Shown piece by piece: positions 11,587 through 19,643 of a stretch of 19,720 bases of DNA (position 1 is its first letter; each line of letters opens with the position of its first letter). The notes beneath the pieces are model-generated. The model was not told where the DNA came from, did not search any database, and saw only the letters and a list, made by a program, of their open reading frames with translations. Source of the stretch: a virus; UHGV virus genome UHGV-0194792; one strand, 5' to 3'. Made by a program: the position numbers and the translations under genes.

Positions 11587-12357
11587 ATGCATCGTATAGA
11601 CACGAAAACCGCGCAGAAGGATAAGTTCGGCGCGGGTAAGAACGGTTTTACCCGTGGTAACCCCCAGACCGGCACGCCTGCCACCGATCTGGATGATGAC
11701 TACTTTGACATGTTGCAGGAAGAGCTTTGTGGCGTGGTGGAGGCATCCGGTGCCAGCCTGGAGAAGGGGAGGCACGACCAGCTGCTTACCGCGCTTCGTG
11801 CGCTGCTGTTAAGCCGCAAGAATCCGTTTGGCGATATCAAATCGGATGGCACCGTGAAAACAGCTCTCGAAAACCTTGGTTTGGGAGAAGGCTCTGCATT
11901 ACCTGTTGGTGTGCCTGTTCCATGGCCTTCAGCCACACCGCCAACAGGCTGGCTGAAATGCAACGGTGCGGCTTTTTCTGCTGAAGAATACCCGGAACTG
12001 GCAAAGGCTTATCCGACAAATAAATTGCCTGATTTACGTGGTGAGTTTATTCGTGGCTGGGATGACGGGCGCGGTATTGATGCAGGACGTGTTTTATTGA
12101 GCATTCAGACAGGGATGCTGGAAAAACACCGCCATATTGTTGTTGCCAATGATGGTTACGACACAAAAGATGAATGGGAACTGGCTACGATTTTCAAAAA
12201 GACATACACACAAGGACGGGGACTTGATGCCGCAAATACAGGAGGGAGTCTGATCCCATCACCGACACTTCATTCACGAGGGAGTATCGGTAATACTGGC
12301 GGGAGGGAAACCCGTCCACGAAATATTGCATTTAACTATATCGTGAGGGCTGCATAA
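11587..12357 (+). CDS. tail fibre protein: constant N-terminus fused to the currently expressed variable C-terminal cassette
   Basis: 256-aa ORF with GGAG RBS. The C-terminal part carries an [12 protein letters not shown] collar-like motif. A hix/gix-like crossover site lies inside the gene at 11864-11889, so codons after about 11877 belong to the invertible segment. Confidence 0.8.
11864..11889. other. invertase crossover site, left (hix/gix-like, 12-2-12: CTCTCGAAAACC TT GGTTTGGGAGAA)
   Basis: Imperfect palindrome with an AAACC-NN-GGTTT core resembling hixL/gix as I recall them. 15 bp (11876-11890) are a perfect inverted repeat of 13731-13745. Confidence 0.7.
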
Positions 12358-13392: not shown

Positions 13393-13745
13393 TTAACAGC
13401 CTAACGCTAAAAATGAAGCGCCGAGGCCAGGAGTACTGGCTCTGGATATAAATTTAACCGGGTCGGGACTAAAACCTGCACAGGCAATATAACCAACAGC
13501 CCCGCTATCTGGTGTATAGTCTTGTGAGACCAAAACACGCAGACATCTGTTTGGAAATGCAATTGGGAAATGGGTTACTACATCCTGTGCAATGCCTGGA
13601 GCGCCGATTGAGCCCCACTGAAGAATAAAACCTGATGGTAATTTTTGATATCCAGTACCTGAAACAGAAAGCGTGAAGCTACCCATATCAGGTATCTGAT
13701 TCGCCCCTGTCCCTACATTCCTTTTAGCCGCTTCTCCCAAACCAA
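13393..13745 (-). CDS. promoterless alternative tail-fibre C-terminal cassette
   Basis: The minus-strand frame is continuous with the crossover site: after inversion, ...ENL of the constant part joins [13 protein letters not shown]... in frame. Contains an ILQWGS motif typical of fibre tips. The 13 codons upstream of the site in the track ORF are not expected to be translated. Confidence 0.65.
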
Positions 13746-13757
13746 CGTTTATGAAAA
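13732..13757. other. invertase crossover site, right (hix/gix-like: TTCTCCCAAACC AA CGTTTATGAAAA)
   Basis: Inverted copy of the left site with the same central dinucleotide on the opposite strand. Lies about 55 bp upstream of the invertase start. Confidence 0.7.
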
Positions 13758-13811
13758 TGCAGAAATAACGAGCAAATGGCATCATTCCTGCTTTTGTCAG
13801 GGGGATCTACC

Positions 13812-14366
13812 ATGCTTATTGGCTATGTACGCGTATCAACAAATGACCAGAACACAGATCTACAACGTAATGCGCTGAACTGTGCAGGATGCGAGCTGAT
13901 TTTTGAAGACAAGATAAGCGGCACAAAGTCCGAAAGGCCGGGACTGAAAAAACTGCTCAGGACATTATCGGCAGGTGACACTCTGGTTGTCTGGAAGCTG
14001 GATCGGCTGGGGCGTAGTATGCGGCATCTTGTCGTGTTGGTGGAGGAGTTGCGCGAACGAGGCATCAACTTTCGTAGTCTGACGGATTCAATTGATACCA
14101 GCACACCAATGGGGCGTTTTTTCTTTCATGTGATGGGTGCCCTGGCTGAAATGGAGCGTGAACTGATTGTTGAACGAACAAAAGCTGGACTGGAAGCTGC
14201 TCGCGCACAGGGACGAATTGGTGGACGTCGTCCCAAACTTACACCAGAACAATGGGCGCAGGCCGGACGATTAATTGCAGCAGGAATTCCTCGCCAGAAG
14301 GTGGCGATCATCTATGATGTTGGTGTATCGACACTGTATAAGAAGTTTCCGGTCGGAGATAAATGA
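13812..14366 (+). CDS. serine DNA invertase (Gin/Pin/Hin/Cin family)
   Basis: The N-terminus MLIGYVRVSTNDQNTDLQRNAL with catalytic Ser in VRVST, and blocks such as GDTLVVWKLDRLGRSM and MGRFFFHVMGALAEMERELI, match my recollection of Gin/Pin. ATG at 13812 with a GGGGGA RBS is preferred over the track start at 13776. A C-terminal helix-turn-helix region is present. Confidence 0.9.
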   Translation: MLIGYVRVSTNDQNTDLQRNALNCAGCELIFEDKISGTKSERPGLKKLLRTLSAGDTLVVWKLDRLGRSMRHLVVLVEELRERGINFRSLTDSIDTSTPMGRFFFHVMGALAEMERELIVERTKAGLEAARAQGRIGGRRPKLTPEQWAQAGRLIAAGIPRQKVAIIYDVGVSTLYKKFPVGDK

Positions 14367-14541
14367 AACCGCAGGCTCGTCGTATGCAAGAAAGTGCTGC
14401 GGCTGGCTGGCCAGCTTCTGATAGTGCGAATATTGAATGATTTCCAGCCGTTATCGATTTTACATATTTTTGTATGAGAGGATTTTTACCTCCTCCCACC
14501 TATCCTCCATGACTTTACGCCACTGTCTCTAGGGCTGCTAT

Positions 14542-14556
14542 GTGCCAGAAGCGGAC
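14542..14556 (+). repeat. direct repeat copy 1 (GTGCCAGAAGCGGAC; extended imperfect match about 14531-14570)
   Basis: 15-bp perfect core read directly. The second copy is at 15595-15609. The two copies bracket the HEPN-like gene. Confidence 0.6.
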
Positions 14557-14604
14557 TTCATTAGATTCTTTGTTTTTTGTGTTAATATACTTACAATCCC
14601 ATCA

Positions 14605-15420
14605 TCAACTAACAACCCAATCATCAGATAATATATCACTGATATTGAAAATATAGGTATGGTTATTTTTACCATCTGAAATGACGATTTTTTTTAAGTT
14701 GAATCTTTCTGATATGATATGCGTTGCAAATTGTGGGATTATTAAAAACAAAGCCTCTACCTTACTGATTAATTCAATGTTGACTTTAGGTCTGAAGTTT
14801 GCATCATGAACCACTTTGTGCCTAATGTAAAATGCTTCCTCTATGAGGGCTCTCCAGTCTGGAAATATATTTTCTATCGATAAATCTTGGGAAATTTGGC
14901 CACTCAGACCGCAAGGAGATATATTAGTTGTACATATGTAGTTTAAAAAACTCTCACCCCACATGCCATTATATGCTTCTTCAAGGTCGTTTAAGTTTTG
15001 AAAGTTAAAGCTTTTACTCAATAACTCTGATAGATTTATCTCAGTGTTTATATTGATAGATGTTTCTGTTCTCATTTTAGATAGTAGTGTTGTAATTCTA
15101 GATTCATCAACTGAATGCACGAAAACAAAAACGTCTCTAAAATATGTTTCCCAGCAACTGATTAGAAATACAAAATATTGTCGATATGCTGTTTTATAAA
15201 TATCTATTTTCTTATCTTTCGTTGAAATAAGTGAATGCATAAGTCGACAATTTTCTGCAAAATTTAGTAGGAAAGACATTGAGAAGTCTTCTATAGCTCC
15301 TCTTGATTCGCGAAGAGATAGCAATTCATCAATAATTTTTTTATTGATTTTCCTAATCTTTTTCAATTGCATGCCTCGTTTTTGCTTAAGTAAAGTTGAT
15401 TTTGGAGTTTCGTCAATCAT
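14605..15420 (-). CDS. hypothetical protein with R-x4-H (HEPN-like) motif; possible Abi-type effector
   Basis: 271-aa ORF in a visibly AT-rich segment, rich in Lys/Ile/Asn. Motif RHKVVH at about residue 205 fits the HEPN signature R-[NHQ]-x3-H. The start is uncertain: 15420 has a weak RBS, and an alternative ATG is at 15372. Confidence 0.5.
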   Translation of the reverse strand: MIDETPKSTLLKQKRGMQLKKIRKINKKIIDELLSLRESRGAIEDFSMSFLLNFAENCRLMHSLISTKDKKIDIYKTAYRQYFVFLISCWETYFRDVFVFVHSVDESRITTLLSKMRTETSININTEINLSELLSKSFNFQNLNDLEEAYNGMWGESFLNYICTTNISPCGLSGQISQDLSIENIFPDWRALIEEAFYIRHKVVHDANFRPKVNIELISKVEALFLIIPQFATHIISERFNLKKIVISDGKNNHTYIFNISDILSDDWVVS

Positions 15421-15594
15421 GTTATCTTATTAGATTTAAAGATAAAGTAACTTTTTGCATAAGCTTTGCGACAAAGATAGCTTTAATGAAAGGCCTTATA
15501 GAGCTACTTGGCCATAAAAATTTTTACGATGAATTCGAATTCAGCGTCCGCTCCTCGCTTAAAGCTGTCCTTGGGCCTAACCTACGATAGCTTC

Positions 15595-15609
15595 GTGCCA
15601 GAAGCGGAC
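15595..15609 (+). repeat. direct repeat copy 2 (GTGCCAGAAGCGGAC)
   Basis: Identical 15-mer to 14542-14556. Flanking bases are partly conserved (GCTnnGTGCCAGAAGCGGAC...TAnGAT). Confidence 0.6.
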
Positions 15610-15896
15610 ATTACTAAGATAGTAACGTATCAAACGGTGGGACAAGTCATGCCAAGTGCGGAAGTGGCTAACAACCATCTGTGTTGTTTAACGGGGAACA
15701 GGTCATTCCATTGACCCGATCATTTATGTTGCGCTGACGCTTAGGTGATAAAAAGCCGCCTATGCCCGTCTATCTTTGGGGATCCGCAATGAAGTTGATT
15801 GTGAGGTTATTAGGCTGGGTCTTCTCATTTATAAGTTGTTGAAGTAGCAACGAATTATCGAGCGATTTATCCCGATTAAATGTCTCACTATTACTC

Positions 15897-17021
15897 TTAA
15901 TCGGTAAATTCATAGTTTGGCCGCATTGAGAAACGCCACAGAGGCAGGCCTCCCCCTTTGTAATCATCAGGGATGGTTACCGTGAAAAGTCTGACATTCT
16001 GCCGGGTGTCAACTGACCTGATCTGGCTGTCGTGTACAGTCTGCTCGTTAAAGGCCGACGTGACCAGCGAACTCAGCGTACCTATAAAGTCGAAACCCTG
16101 TCTTTTGTAATTTTCGTCGTCTTCCGGGGAAAATGTGTATCGGATGCTCTCAAGCTGACCATCAGTGAATATTGCCTCCGATCCGGGGCAGAGCCACTCT
16201 CCGTAGCGCATCAGATGAAACGCCGTGTTCATTTCAAATTTATCCGTTACTTGTCTGTCATTGCAGTAAATTTTAATCTCGCCAATTGTAAAATGGGCGA
16301 TGCCTTCGGGACTAACTGAAACTTCTTTGGTCCGGTCGGGGATAAGCTCAAAAACCAGATCGGGTTCTGTTGCTATCGATAGGTCGCCCAGCAGGTACAT
16401 CTCACTTTTTGCGAGCGCCGAGGCCTGCGTCAAGGTATGTTCACGCTCTAGCTCCTTCATTGAGGAGCGTGCAACCAGCGCCCACCGGCGCAGCATCCTG
16501 ATGTAGATGGCATAATAAACTGGAATACCATGGAGCTCACCGTACTTTTCAACCTTATCACTGTACGATTTCTTCAGGCGATAATCGTCAGCCACGTCAT
16601 CCGCGTTAAAGTTTTTTACTTCCACAAAGATCTGACGGCGATCCTTCAGTATAATGCGATAGTCAGGTGCCACCAGATCGGGATCGGCTGACATCAAGTC
16701 TCCGGCGTCTTCCTGTTTAAGAAACTGGCAGTGGTTCAGTGCGGCGCAAACGTGTTTAAATAGGTTTTCTATTCTTTTCCCGTTCAGCAGAATTGGATTC
16801 TGATGGGAAGCGATTAATGACGTGGTGACCTTTTGTATAAAGTCATCCTGGTGCTCGGGGTTTTTAATATCGTAATTATAGATCTGGCCCAACGAGGAAA
16901 AAAGCTCAAAGGCTTCAAATCGTTCGGGATTCCTCTTGATTCTTTCCATTAATGACTCCGCAGCTAATAAATACAACGAAATGAGATCACTTGTTTCTCT
17001 GAAGTTACCTGAAAACTGCAT
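15897..17021 (-). CDS. hypothetical protein with PD-(D/E)xK nuclease-like motif
   Basis: 374-aa ORF. The segment APDYRIILKDRRQIFVEVK carries PD followed 13 residues later by E-V-K, as in restriction-endonuclease-fold active sites. It lies 70 bp downstream of and co-directional with the FRG-like gene. Confidence 0.5.
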   Translation of the reverse strand: MQFSGNFRETSDLISLYLLAAESLMERIKRNPERFEAFELFSSLGQIYNYDIKNPEHQDDFIQKVTTSLIASHQNPILLNGKRIENLFKHVCAALNHCQFLKQEDAGDLMSADPDLVAPDYRIILKDRRQIFVEVKNFNADDVADDYRLKKSYSDKVEKYGELHGIPVYYAIYIRMLRRWALVARSSMKELEREHTLTQASALAKSEMYLLGDLSIATEPDLVFELIPDRTKEVSVSPEGIAHFTIGEIKIYCNDRQVTDKFEMNTAFHLMRYGEWLCPGSEAIFTDGQLESIRYTFSPEDDENYKRQGFDFIGTLSSLVTSAFNEQTVHDSQIRSVDTRQNVRLFTVTIPDDYKGGGLPLWRFSMRPNYEFTD

Positions 17022-17090
17022 TCTGCACGGCGATTAAAGCGGCTATGGGCCCACGCTGGCACACAGGCGTGCCGTGCGACTAAAGCGCTA

Positions 17091-18461
17091 TCAGATTCGT
17101 CCATCGTATAGTTTTGCAATTTCCGTAGCAGCCTTCTCAATGCCGGGGTACACCGTGCTTTCGTTAATGCCAAGGCGGCTCAGTTGCTGCATCAGATGCT
17201 CTTTGTTTCTAATAACAAGCTTTTTGATGTTCAGCGTACTGAGTCCCGTTTCCGGTAGGTCTACGTTTTCACCAAAGAGCAGGAAAGCGCCTGATTGGGA
17301 CGAAATACGTGCGTTACTGAGCCGACCTTTGACCACAACAATTTTACTTAGGTGGACCGGATCGATGATGCTTTTGAAATAGGACTTTTCATCGCGGATC
17401 AGGTGTAGTAGTTGTCCGCACTCTTCAGATTCGTTAAACGCCGGAATGGTGAGATTAGTTTTCAGGCTGCTTTTGAAACGAGAGGGAAGACGGGAAAGAT
17501 TGGCTATGCAACTTACGGTATCCGAGTCGAAAAACTTAATTTCACTTTTGGGCGTCGTCAGAATAATGACGTTCCCGTCAATTTCATGATTATTTTCATC
17601 GTGCTTGATTTTAGAGCAGGCAAAATATAGTGCGATCAAGGGGTTTGTTGATACATCAAGCAGGCGTGTGGGTAGGCCATAGTGTTGCATGCGCACGAGT
17701 TTATCTAGCATATACCGATCGTCTTTGAACTCGGCGGGCTGCACGGTCAGCAGCTCTGTTATCATGTCCGATTCGTGATGGCGGTAGCGATAGTTACCCT
17801 GAGTATCCTTGCGGAACAGTGAGGGTTCCAGTTGGTAGTTGATGTCCGAGTGACCGCGGTAAAATACCTCTTCATCGTTTCCCTGTGTATGATCGAGTAT
17901 CACCTGCAAGTACTGATTGATATTCGCAATGATCTCTAGTTCTTCATTATTCTCCGGTGCTTCCGCACTCGCTGCTGCGGGCTCAACATTAGAATAGCCT
18001 TCAAGGCCTAAAACACGCAGAATCTCATTTACGGAAATCTCTTTGACCGCCCAGAACGTTCTGTTTAGTCCGAAACTGCCCAGCTCCAGCTCACTTACGT
18101 ACTCTTTATCGCTGGTTAAAGGCTTGTAGCCGATATCACTGGTAATCTCATAATCAAACGCTAAAACTTTTTCTCTGTTATACACGGACGTACTTATCTT
18201 GCTGATTTTTCCTAAGCGGATGTGGCTGAAATAACCTATTTTTTCATTATCTTCATCGAATTCAATTTCCGGCTCGGACATAAATACAACGGGCAGTTCC
18301 TGAAGAAAATGATAGGTTTTTTCAGTCAGGGGAAGCAATCTGCTTCTAAGAGACTCTGGCGTGGATTCGAAGAGTCGCGACACAGGGAAAGAGTCATTGC
18401 CACTGGGTTCAGAAAAAAAAGTGTAGTATTTGGGGGTTCCGACAACGATAAGATTCAGCAT
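17091..18461 (-). CDS. FRG-domain-like protein with N- and C-terminal extensions
   Basis: 456-aa ORF with GAGGA RBS 8 nt upstream. Central blocks FYRGHSDINYQLEPSLFR and QHYGLPTRLLDVSTNPLIALYFA match my recollection of the Pfam FRG-domain signature. About 185 residues precede the domain. Confidence 0.55.
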   Translation of the reverse strand: MLNLIVVGTPKYYTFFSEPSGNDSFPVSRLFESTPESLRSRLLPLTEKTYHFLQELPVVFMSEPEIEFDEDNEKIGYFSHIRLGKISKISTSVYNREKVLAFDYEITSDIGYKPLTSDKEYVSELELGSFGLNRTFWAVKEISVNEILRVLGLEGYSNVEPAAASAEAPENNEELEIIANINQYLQVILDHTQGNDEEVFYRGHSDINYQLEPSLFRKDTQGNYRYRHHESDMITELLTVQPAEFKDDRYMLDKLVRMQHYGLPTRLLDVSTNPLIALYFACSKIKHDENNHEIDGNVIILTTPKSEIKFFDSDTVSCIANLSRLPSRFKSSLKTNLTIPAFNESEECGQLLHLIRDEKSYFKSIIDPVHLSKIVVVKGRLSNARISSQSGAFLLFGENVDLPETGLSTLNIKKLVIRNKEHLMQQLSRLGINESTVYPGIEKAATEIAKLYDGRI

Positions 18462-19000
18462 ACTTGCGATCCTCGCATAAGTTAAGTTTCTCTCTCATCA
18501 TGCCAGACTTGATAATTATTTAAACATCAGCGCTGCTATTTATATTTCACACCTTTTTGAGCCGAAACGACACTGCCATCGGTAAGCCCGGATGATACAT
18601 TCTGAAAATTCATCAGAAAAATTTACATCACGCTTTACTCCTGACGTATATCAGCACTAACGTGCCATTGCGCACGCGCTAGCTATTTAGTAGCGCGTTT
18701 CGGCGAAAAGAGATTCGGTAGTCAATGACTATATTTCGCTCATAACAGACATTCACTACAGTTGTGGCAGAAAGGTATGCATGCTGGGTGTGGGGAAGTC
18801 GTGAAAGAAAAGAAGACTGCAGTGCCGTTTGTCGTTACGTTTATCTTCATTGGCTATGCAAGTCGTAATACAAGGTGGGACAAAACTGAGACATATAAGG
18901 CCTCGCAATGGCTTGCAAGGCTTTACATGTTTTGATGTGGTGGGACGTGTGAGCGCAGTGTTGATGGGGTAATGCTTTGAATTAGAAGCGGATTCTTATA

Positions 19001-19046
19001 ATTCGTAATGCGAAGGTCGTAGGTTCGACTCCTATTATCGGCACCA
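19001..19046 (+). other. thrW: prophage attachment-site repeat (attR): 3' 46 nt of a tRNA-Thr gene, including T-arm and CCA end
   Basis: ATTCGTAATGCGAAGGTCGTAGGTTCGACTCCTATTATCGGCACCA matches the 3' part of E. coli tRNA-Thr (CGU) as I recall it, with a canonical GGTTCGACTCC T-arm. No matching 5' half is present upstream, so this is a partial copy and not a gene. Confidence 0.65.
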
Positions 19047-19643
19047 TTTAAATCAATAAGTTATCTCACATTTAAGTAAACTACGTTCTCCTCTTGTGCC
19101 TTTGATTTTGCTCGCGTGCGCGGTGAAATGCCTGACTGAAAGGTGAGCATATCGACGAACCATTTCGAGAGTTTCCCATCTGCTCATTTTTAAGTGCAAG
19201 CAGGAAAACACCGGACTAAACCAATCAGCTGTTCGAAAATGGCAAGCGGATTAATATGCCATGGCGGGGCAGCTTTGAGCCGCACGCATGGGGTGTGGCA
19301 AGCCTGATGGATTTTGCTGTGCCTGTGGTGGCGTGTTTGCTGGTTTGGCTGTTGGTTAAACGCGAAAGTCATAATGCCAGGGGAATACCGCAGGGTGTTC
19401 AGGTTTTGCATAAAAAAGCCCACCATTAAGGTGGGCAAAAGGAATGATTTATATTCTCTGAGAGAAACATTACATTTCTCCTTGTCACTTCTAACATAAA
19501 AATATGGAGAAATAATGGAGCTTATATTAATTGGCGATTAGGTAACCATGTGGTTATACAAAACAATACAGTTCTTTACATTTGCCTTGTTTTATGAATA
19601 CTCCTGAAGAGGTGTACAACATAATTAAACAAACAGGGTAAAT

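Follow-up and report, generated by a model that had tools for sequence, protein, structure and literature searches.

FRG-domain proteins are the closest described relatives of the gene analysed here. The PDC families, PDC-S15 among them, are described as untested; they were put forward on the strength of genes lying within BREX, DISARM or type I restriction-modification systems (bioRxiv 10.1101/2024.01.29.577857). Aravind's group has placed Frg computationally in the ADP-ribosyltransferase (ART) superfamily (PMC9503650) and predicted it to be an NADase or antiviral effector (PMC9503650; bioRxiv 10.1101/2024.07.30.605764). We analysed an FRG gene at positions 17091..18461, minus strand, of the virus genome UHGV-0194792; "the window" below means the whole of this 19,720-nucleotide stretch. 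The gene product belongs directly by sequence to PDC-S15 and to the Pfam FRG family, and it shares with them the single-gene unit and the occurrence in defence islands and mobile elements. It differs in having an extra 155-aa N-terminal domain described neither by Pfam nor by the best-matching PDC-S15 models, whose 286-300 positions cover aa 171-452 only. PDC-S15 has candidate status, and membership therefore says nothing on mechanism. We lean somewhat towards reading the gene as a self-contained, mobile single-gene cargo of an e14-family prophage end, most likely of the anti-phage abortive-infection type, in which an N-terminal sensor would be fused to an NAD+-using FRG effector.

Comparable layouts and folds occur outside the FRG family. 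Type IV enzymes with PUA-like readers (the EVE-HNH enzymes VcaM4I and TspA15I, archaeal McrB, PD-T4-3) are likewise single polypeptides in which a linker connects a PUA-like domain at the N-terminus to an effector at the C-terminus. Their effector is an HNH, GIY-YIG or PD-(D/E)xK nuclease, whereas here it is FRG, predicted to be ART-like. The N-terminal domain (N-domain) of the present protein also differs from EVE/YTH readers in showing no sequence similarity to them and in being acidic. With EcoKMcrA the parallel is one of position, the FRG gene being a stand-alone gene at the same prophage position as mcrA in e14 of Escherichia coli K-12. Members of the ART superfamily (diphtheria toxin, TreX, RES/ParT, Tpt1/KptA, AcrF11) have no detectable sequence similarity to the protein. 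TIR NADase effectors of the CAP12/Pycsar type and of TIR_2 are unrelated to FRG in fold, yet the same N-domain is found in sister proteins that bear TIR in place of FRG, which points to an equivalent logic of sensor plus NAD-consuming effector.

Two-domain architecture of the FRG protein

The open reading frame that an earlier note on this DNA had placed at 17091-18461 is real and complete. It lies on the minus strand, where it runs from an ATG to a TGA and translates into 456 aa; the plus-strand reading was ruled out by its many stop codons. The protein is RefSeq WP_023150042.1 in E. coli ECONIH1, and in the 100% identical region of that genome (NZ_CP009859) the gene is annotated 'FRG domain-containing protein'. 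Both sequence blocks from which an FRG domain had been recognised were found in the translation: FYRGHSDINYQLEPSLFR spans aa 200-217 and QHYGLPTRLLDVSTNPLIALYFA spans aa 259-281. A Pfam profile search bore out the assignment far beyond chance (PF08867; 79.2 bits against a cut-off of 25; E 4.7e-22; aa 198-289, nt 17595-17870). Conservation was read by aligning 34 full-length relatives with identities as low as 43%, and the motif F200-Y201-R202-G203 is invariant in all of them.

Fourteen PADLOC models of PDC-S15 matched the protein, the best two (E 8.4e-99 and 1.7e-98) spanning aa 171-452 as one unit. The C-terminal region, previously described as being of no recognisable family, is covered by these models in one piece and belongs to the FRG module. 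The N-terminal region of about 185 aa, described in the same terms, is instead a discrete conserved domain followed by a variable linker. The N-domain comprises aa 1-155 (17997..18461, minus strand); it is predicted to form a PUA-like beta-barrel and is probably a sensor or regulatory module. The linker, aa 156-175 (17937..17996, minus strand), is acidic, alanine/proline-rich and made up of poorly conserved alignment columns. It varies from 18 to 32 aa among the 34 relatives and has a pLDDT of 60-75 in the full-length structural model. The FRG module, aa 176-456 (17094..17936, minus strand), is one conserved unit with an ART-like predicted fold. About 70 of its positions are invariant in the alignment, including Y201, R202, G203, H204, S214, R217, Q259, H260, R266, D269, N383, R385, S388 and Q389.

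The protein has numerous relatives. At E<=0.001 the matches comprised 2750 protein clusters; of the 120 that were listed, the majority align over the full length (coverage about 99-100%), with identities reaching as low as 43%. Relatives are encoded at no fewer than 579 species loci, predominantly of Proteobacteria, and full-length ones were found down to 36-45% identity. The phage protein family phrog_4962 matched end to end (aa 1-453), and NCBIfam gave no match for any of the three cargo proteins, namely this one and the 350-aa and 271-aa proteins described below. The two-domain architecture, together with the stand-alone status of the gene, is assigned with high confidence.

Predicted folds and fusion of the N-domain to TIR effectors

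The AF2 model of the full-length protein had a pLDDT of 81 and a pTM of 0.71; for the N-domain modelled alone (aa 1-155) the values were 92.9 and 0.88. The N-domain is predicted to adopt a pseudobarrel fold that falls in the PUA-like superfamily. Its resemblance scores were 7.3 to the YTH domain of Mmi1 and likewise to the reader domain of the 5-hydroxymethylcytosine (5hmC)-dependent nuclease VcaM4I, 7.2 to the EVE protein PH1033, 6.6 to THYN1 bound to 5-methylcytosine DNA, 6.0 to ASCH and 4.7-4.8 to the N-domains of archaeal McrB. At the sequence level, 14 diverse copies of the N-domain searched against Pfam at E<=10 gave chance-level matches only, with no EVE, YTH or ASCH family among them. 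The invariant N-domain residues R29, E32, F60, E63, R134, W137 and K140 could line a putative pocket.

With the FRG part in the query, resemblances of ART type appeared: the Rhs toxin TreX (7.0), diphtheria toxin (6.4), Tpt1 (6.0), AcrF11 (5.8), heat-labile enterotoxin and PARP15 (5.4 each) and RES toxins (about 5). Fold comparison with and without the FRG part showed that the ADP-ribosyltransferase matches arise only when this part is in the query. Foldseek returned nothing significant, its weak matches falling in the same fold classes. The ART-type matches are consistent with the superfamily assignment that had been published for Frg on computational grounds. That prediction reportedly goes back to Burroughs and Aravind 2020 (J Bacteriol). 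Conservation and predicted strand positions allow a guess at the catalytic residues: R202/H204, S214 and Q389 are candidates, with Q389 possibly taking the usual glutamate position.

The N-domain alone was searched against 1.84 billion representative proteins. Only 36 matches were obtained, all at the N-terminus of the matched protein, and FRG was carried by 8 of the 25 that were scanned. Four complete proteins (P0179, P0186, P0191 and P0196) have a TIR domain in place of FRG behind the same N-domain, the TIR-linked N-domain matches having E-values of 1e-6 to 4e-4. In P0179 and P0196 the TIR domain is of the CAP12/Pycsar type (E 8e-34 and 5e-33), and in P0186 and P0191 it is TIR_2 (E 5e-22 and 3e-20). 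A profile seeded with the TIR-linked N-domains found further SEFIR/TIR fusions (P0206, P0242, P0277 and P0217), and one SEFIR/TIR fusion is located in an integrative conjugative element of Paraburkholderia. This profile, a 146-aa query, returned only proteins of at most 256 aa, many of them truncated, and is an unfair census of fusion partners.

Residues R29, E32, F60, E63, G84, R134, W137 and K140 are invariant in both the FRG and the TIR fusions; their invariance whichever effector is attached indicates that they serve the N-domain's own function. The occurrence of the same N-domain on FRG or on TIR argues for a swappable sensor or regulator on NAD-consuming effectors. Because the alternative effector TIR is a known NAD+-cleaving immune domain, the exchange also supports FRG as an NAD+-consuming effector. 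A common N-module on alternative effectors is a classic signature of a sensor-effector defence protein. Pfam FRG, PDC-S15 and the predicted ART link are already known; what the present analysis appears to add is the definition of the N-domain, its PUA-like fold and its sharing with TIR effectors, Burroughs and Aravind 2020 lying outside this comparison.

Some observations on the fusion searches stand apart from this argument. The 146-aa profile missed the 284-320 aa proteins that had built it, which suggests that candidate selection has a length limit and that domain censuses are biased when the query is short. The precomputed annotation of P0297 as Abi_C could not be reproduced and plays no part in the argument. 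In P0195 and P0295 the N-domain is fused to a C-terminal domain of about 150 aa with no Pfam match and a start of the form 'MMPF...D'. We take this domain to resemble nucleoside 2-deoxyribosyltransferase-like or TIR-like Rossmann domains, and it may be a further alternative effector.

In the mechanism that we favour, the N-terminal PUA-like barrel would act as a sensor or regulator, joined to the effector by a flexible linker. It might bind a phage-derived ligand (for instance a modified nucleotide or nucleic acid, perhaps a phage protein); alternatively, it might keep the enzyme inactive until infection. The FRG module would be a divergent ART-fold effector using NAD+, which either destroys NAD+ as an NADase or ADP-ribosylates nucleic acid or protein. 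As the outcome, phage replication would be stopped or the infected cell killed. We attach moderate confidence to the defence role, moderate to low confidence to the predicted NAD+ chemistry of the FRG module, and low confidence to what the N-domain senses. A bolder proposal, which we put forward tentatively and regard as rather doubtful, is that the N-domain is a previously undescribed PUA-like sensor of a phage-specific ligand (a nucleotide or nucleic acid carrying a modification, or a small molecule derived from a nucleotide) that switches on the fused NAD+-consuming effector, FRG here and TIR elsewhere. If true, this would define a new family of single-protein abortive-infection systems, and FRG would gain its first function, as an immune effector of a new class that acts as an NADase or by ADP-ribosylation.

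The favoured mechanism could also take a narrower form, modification-dependent targeting of the type IV kind. The PUA-like domain would read a modified base (5hmC, glucosyl-5hmC or N6-methyladenine) in phage DNA or RNA, and the FRG module would then ADP-ribosylate that nucleic acid in the manner of DarT or Tpt1, with no NAD+ depletion. Enzymes of the VcaM4I group restrict 5hmC-containing phage (PMC6765204), invariant Arg and His residues are numerous in the FRG module, and mcrA occupies the same prophage slot in e14, all of which fit such targeting. We nevertheless think it improbable: the N-domain is acidic and without sequence similarity to the EVE, YTH or ASCH families, and the TIR domains that replace FRG in the sister proteins have, as generally known, characterised bacterial roles in NAD+ cleavage or signalling and not in nucleic-acid modification. 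The 456-aa protein contains no nuclease domain, and the layout of a type IV endonuclease, with the nuclease in the same protein or in an obligate partner, was not found.

Genomic surroundings and the 350-aa neighbour

Some FRG relatives reside in defence islands and others in the cargo slots of prophages. A complete lack of co-localisation with nuclease genes or defence islands, which by the earlier note would have refuted its proposal, is thus not what is seen. One relative adjoins Hachiman in Klebsiella (L088), and another lies inside a BrxC/D-like and helicase island in Serratia (L091). Direct neighbours elsewhere include integrases, IetS, LmuB and DNA methylases, and many neighbours in the 79 loci clustered are ordinary genes. 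Relatives are also carried by phages. In the P2-like phage P2_2H1 the gene sits at the right end of the genome, past the replication genes and on the opposite strand, a position that we take to be the old/tin defence hotspot of phage P2; in phage Tritos it is an opposite-strand insert. The temperate phage PhiR11_1 (PV340547.1, L087; listed host E. coli K-12 MG1655) has an FRG gene 99.6% identical to that of the window. In PhiR11_1, IS2 (734-1962) lies directly upstream of the FRG gene in place of the native leader and might alter its expression. A literature search on the phage name PhiR11 found nothing relevant.

These surroundings set the gene apart from toxin-antitoxin and cyclase-dependent systems. 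RES-Xre, DarTG, ParST and Rhs toxins have an adjacent antitoxin or immunity gene, whereas the FRG gene stands without one: no conserved small neighbour was present upstream or downstream in the 79 loci, and neither Pfam nor PADLOC gave a match to a toxin-antitoxin family. For the TIR effectors of CBASS and Pycsar, activation comes from a cyclic nucleotide made by a neighbouring cyclase, and FRG loci have no such conserved neighbour; among 148 immediate neighbours there was no cyclase or other shared family. Pairing of the N-domain, as an effector-associated domain, with a copy on a neighbouring NTPase was ruled out as well, there being no conserved neighbour.

The gene downstream of the FRG gene encodes a 350-aa PD-(D/E)xK-like protein (15897..16949, minus strand). 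The longest open reading frame (374 aa) runs to 17021, and its start was rejected as 24 codons too long, since 16949 is the start in relatives and in RefSeq. All 28 relatives compared keep P95-D96 and E110-V111-K112 unchanged, and this PD...EVK motif makes the earlier description 'nuclease-like' a fair one, although the protein has no Pfam, NCBIfam or PHROG match and no significant PADLOC match. The family is stand-alone in prophage ends and mobile elements and may itself be a single-gene defence candidate not described before.

The earlier note had cast the FRG protein as a sensor or regulator partner of this nuclease-like gene. In such a two-gene system the FRG protein would sense or regulate, the 350-aa protein would be the effector and both would be required. 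The two genes are on the same strand, 98-141 bp apart, and no terminator-like site intervenes; the neighbour carries the invariant PD...EVK motif. The pair moreover recurs at similar divergence (about 77-100% identity for both proteins) in 12 loci beyond the window's strain and Kluyvera (L002); these loci (L087, L089-L096, L099, L173 and L174), which differ in their surroundings, belong to an E. coli phage, to Serratia, and to metagenomes and viral contigs. Across the wider family, however, the partnership disappears. The 350-aa neighbour was present at just one of 80 species loci encoding full-length FRG relatives, that of Kluyvera (98% identical), and absent from the other 79, and no neighbour family is common to more than 6 of 79 FRG loci. 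Conversely, 81 loci with relatives of the 350-aa protein at <=50% identity, 50 of which have >=1.5 kb of upstream sequence, contain neither an FRG gene nor any other conserved partner. Among the loci of the 350-aa family in metagenomes and viral contigs, an adjacent FRG gene was seen only at tblastn identities of about 76% or more to the window's 350-aa protein, in 12 loci.

Even within this one close, enterobacterial lineage each gene is found alone. The FRG gene is unpaired in Klebsiella (L088, 78% identical, beside Hachiman) and likewise in Pantoea (L003), and the 350-aa gene occurs by itself in a mobile element of Pectobacterium (L082/L083, 80% identity) and at a Morganella prophage end (L084). 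The FRG protein, besides, already bears its own effector-type domain, in the position that TIR fills in the sister proteins. We accordingly give the two-gene system little chance, and a conserved operon was ruled out by neighbour clustering at the 79 FRG loci and the 81 loci of the 350-aa family. On the distribution of their relatives, the FRG and 350-aa genes are best seen as independent single-gene modules, apparently recent neighbours that now travel together.

Several points weigh against our reading of the FRG gene as a single-gene sensor-effector system. PDC-S15 is explicitly an unvalidated defence candidate, and no experiment on this 456-aa protein or on any FRG protein was found in the literature; the earlier statement that the domain has no established function stands to that extent, but it leaves out the computational ART-superfamily assignment (PMC9503650). 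A hidden Markov model (HMM) of the whole FRG-protein family had no match among PDB sequences, and an HMM of the N-domain searched against all PDB sequences gave chance-level matches only, none at E<0.5. The FRG module has no invariant glutamate where ARTs usually carry one. The N-domain is acidic (median net charge -5, isoelectric point 5.2), which is unusual for a nucleic-acid binder and disfavours simple nucleic-acid binding. A promoter scan located no promoter for the FRG gene (9 sites, against 9.6 +/- 3.2 in shuffled sequence). The adjacency to the 350-aa gene recurs in E. coli, Kluyvera and Serratia in different surroundings, which leaves room for cooperation in that lineage.

Some of these points would suit a prophage-related or housekeeping role outside defence, such as RNA end processing, regulation or lysogenic conversion, or a non-catalytic protein whose ART resemblance is misleading. 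The lack of any experiment showing activity, of a significant Foldseek match, of a matching NCBIfam family and of a located promoter speaks for that alternative, as do the ordinary genes among many neighbours in the 79 loci. We judge this unlikely in view of the patchy, mobile distribution of the gene (28/5426 E. coli genomes; phages, integrative elements and defence islands), the N-domain common to TIR effectors, the roughly 70 invariant residues of the FRG module in 34 relatives, as in an enzyme, and the independent computational ART-superfamily assignment.

The FRG domain is widespread, is an ART-type immune effector on paper only and is listed as an unvalidated defence candidate. The present locus offers a native E. 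coli example of it, with the 99.6%-identical copy in PhiR11_1. If confirmed, the sensor-effector reading would bring an effector chemistry and a sensor domain that are both new into the range of single-protein immune systems of bacteria, and it would mark the e14-family prophage end as a slot for interchangeable defence genes, mcrA in K-12 and the FRG gene here.

The prophage end and other features of the window

The window, 100% identical to E. coli ECONIH1 (NZ_CP009859), spans the late region of an e14-family prophage together with its right end. The prophage has an HK97-type head, a Mu-like contractile tail and a Pin invertase. The invertase gene pinE (13776-14366) is followed by three minus-strand genes and then by the attachment site, and the FRG gene sits between pinE and this thrW site. 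In K-12 e14 the slot after pinE is occupied by the type IV restriction gene mcrA. The region is present in only 28 of 5426 complete E. coli genomes.

The ribosome-binding site attributed to the FRG gene was found as a Shine-Dalgarno-like GAGGA at 18470..18474 (minus strand), 8 nt before the ATG by direct sequence reading. The upstream non-coding DNA, put earlier at about 500 bp, measures 539 bp (18462..19000, minus strand) and extends from the prophage end to the FRG gene; open reading frames wholly inside this leader are all <=57 aa. It presumably holds the promoter of the FRG gene, and a promoter and terminator scan of 14300-19200 gave counts no higher than those in shuffled sequence. The leader is bounded by a 46-nt copy of the 3' end of the tRNA-Thr gene thrW (19001..19046, plus strand; 100% identity to nt 31-76 of K-12 thrW). 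Judged from sequence, this copy is the core of the prophage attachment site and marks the right end of the prophage. It came from direct comparison with thrW; ARAGORN found no complete tRNA.

Beyond the leader, 19001-19211 comprises the 46-nt thrW 3' fragment and then a 155-nt integrase pseudogene fragment, after which yagU follows. This stretch looks like what is left of an element that had integrated at thrW earlier, with the present prophage now lying next to it. In K-12 the thrW site is filled by CP4-6.

Next to pinE, a 20-nt inverted repeat with 95% complementarity (11871-11890 and 13731-13750) flanks about 1.9 kb that contain the 3' part of a tail-fibre gene together with oppositely oriented tail-fibre and assembly genes. 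The segment between the repeats is an invertible host-range segment with Pin crossover sites.

The product of the third cargo gene (14605-15420, minus strand), 271 aa long, matches HEPN_RiboL-PSP weakly (E 7.8e-6, just under the Pfam cut-off) and contains an R-x4-H motif (RHKVVH); the gene is possibly an RNase-type defence gene. The notion that the FRG gene is the first gene of a cargo operon holds for the 350-aa gene, which follows 141 bp on along the same strand with no terminator-like site between, but it does not extend to this third gene, which is separated from the 350-aa gene by 476 bp and has a G+C content of 0.30-0.34 against 0.43-0.49 in its neighbours. The 271-aa gene is not in the Kluyvera locus, and a different gene takes its place in phage PhiR11_1; it looks like a separate acquisition.

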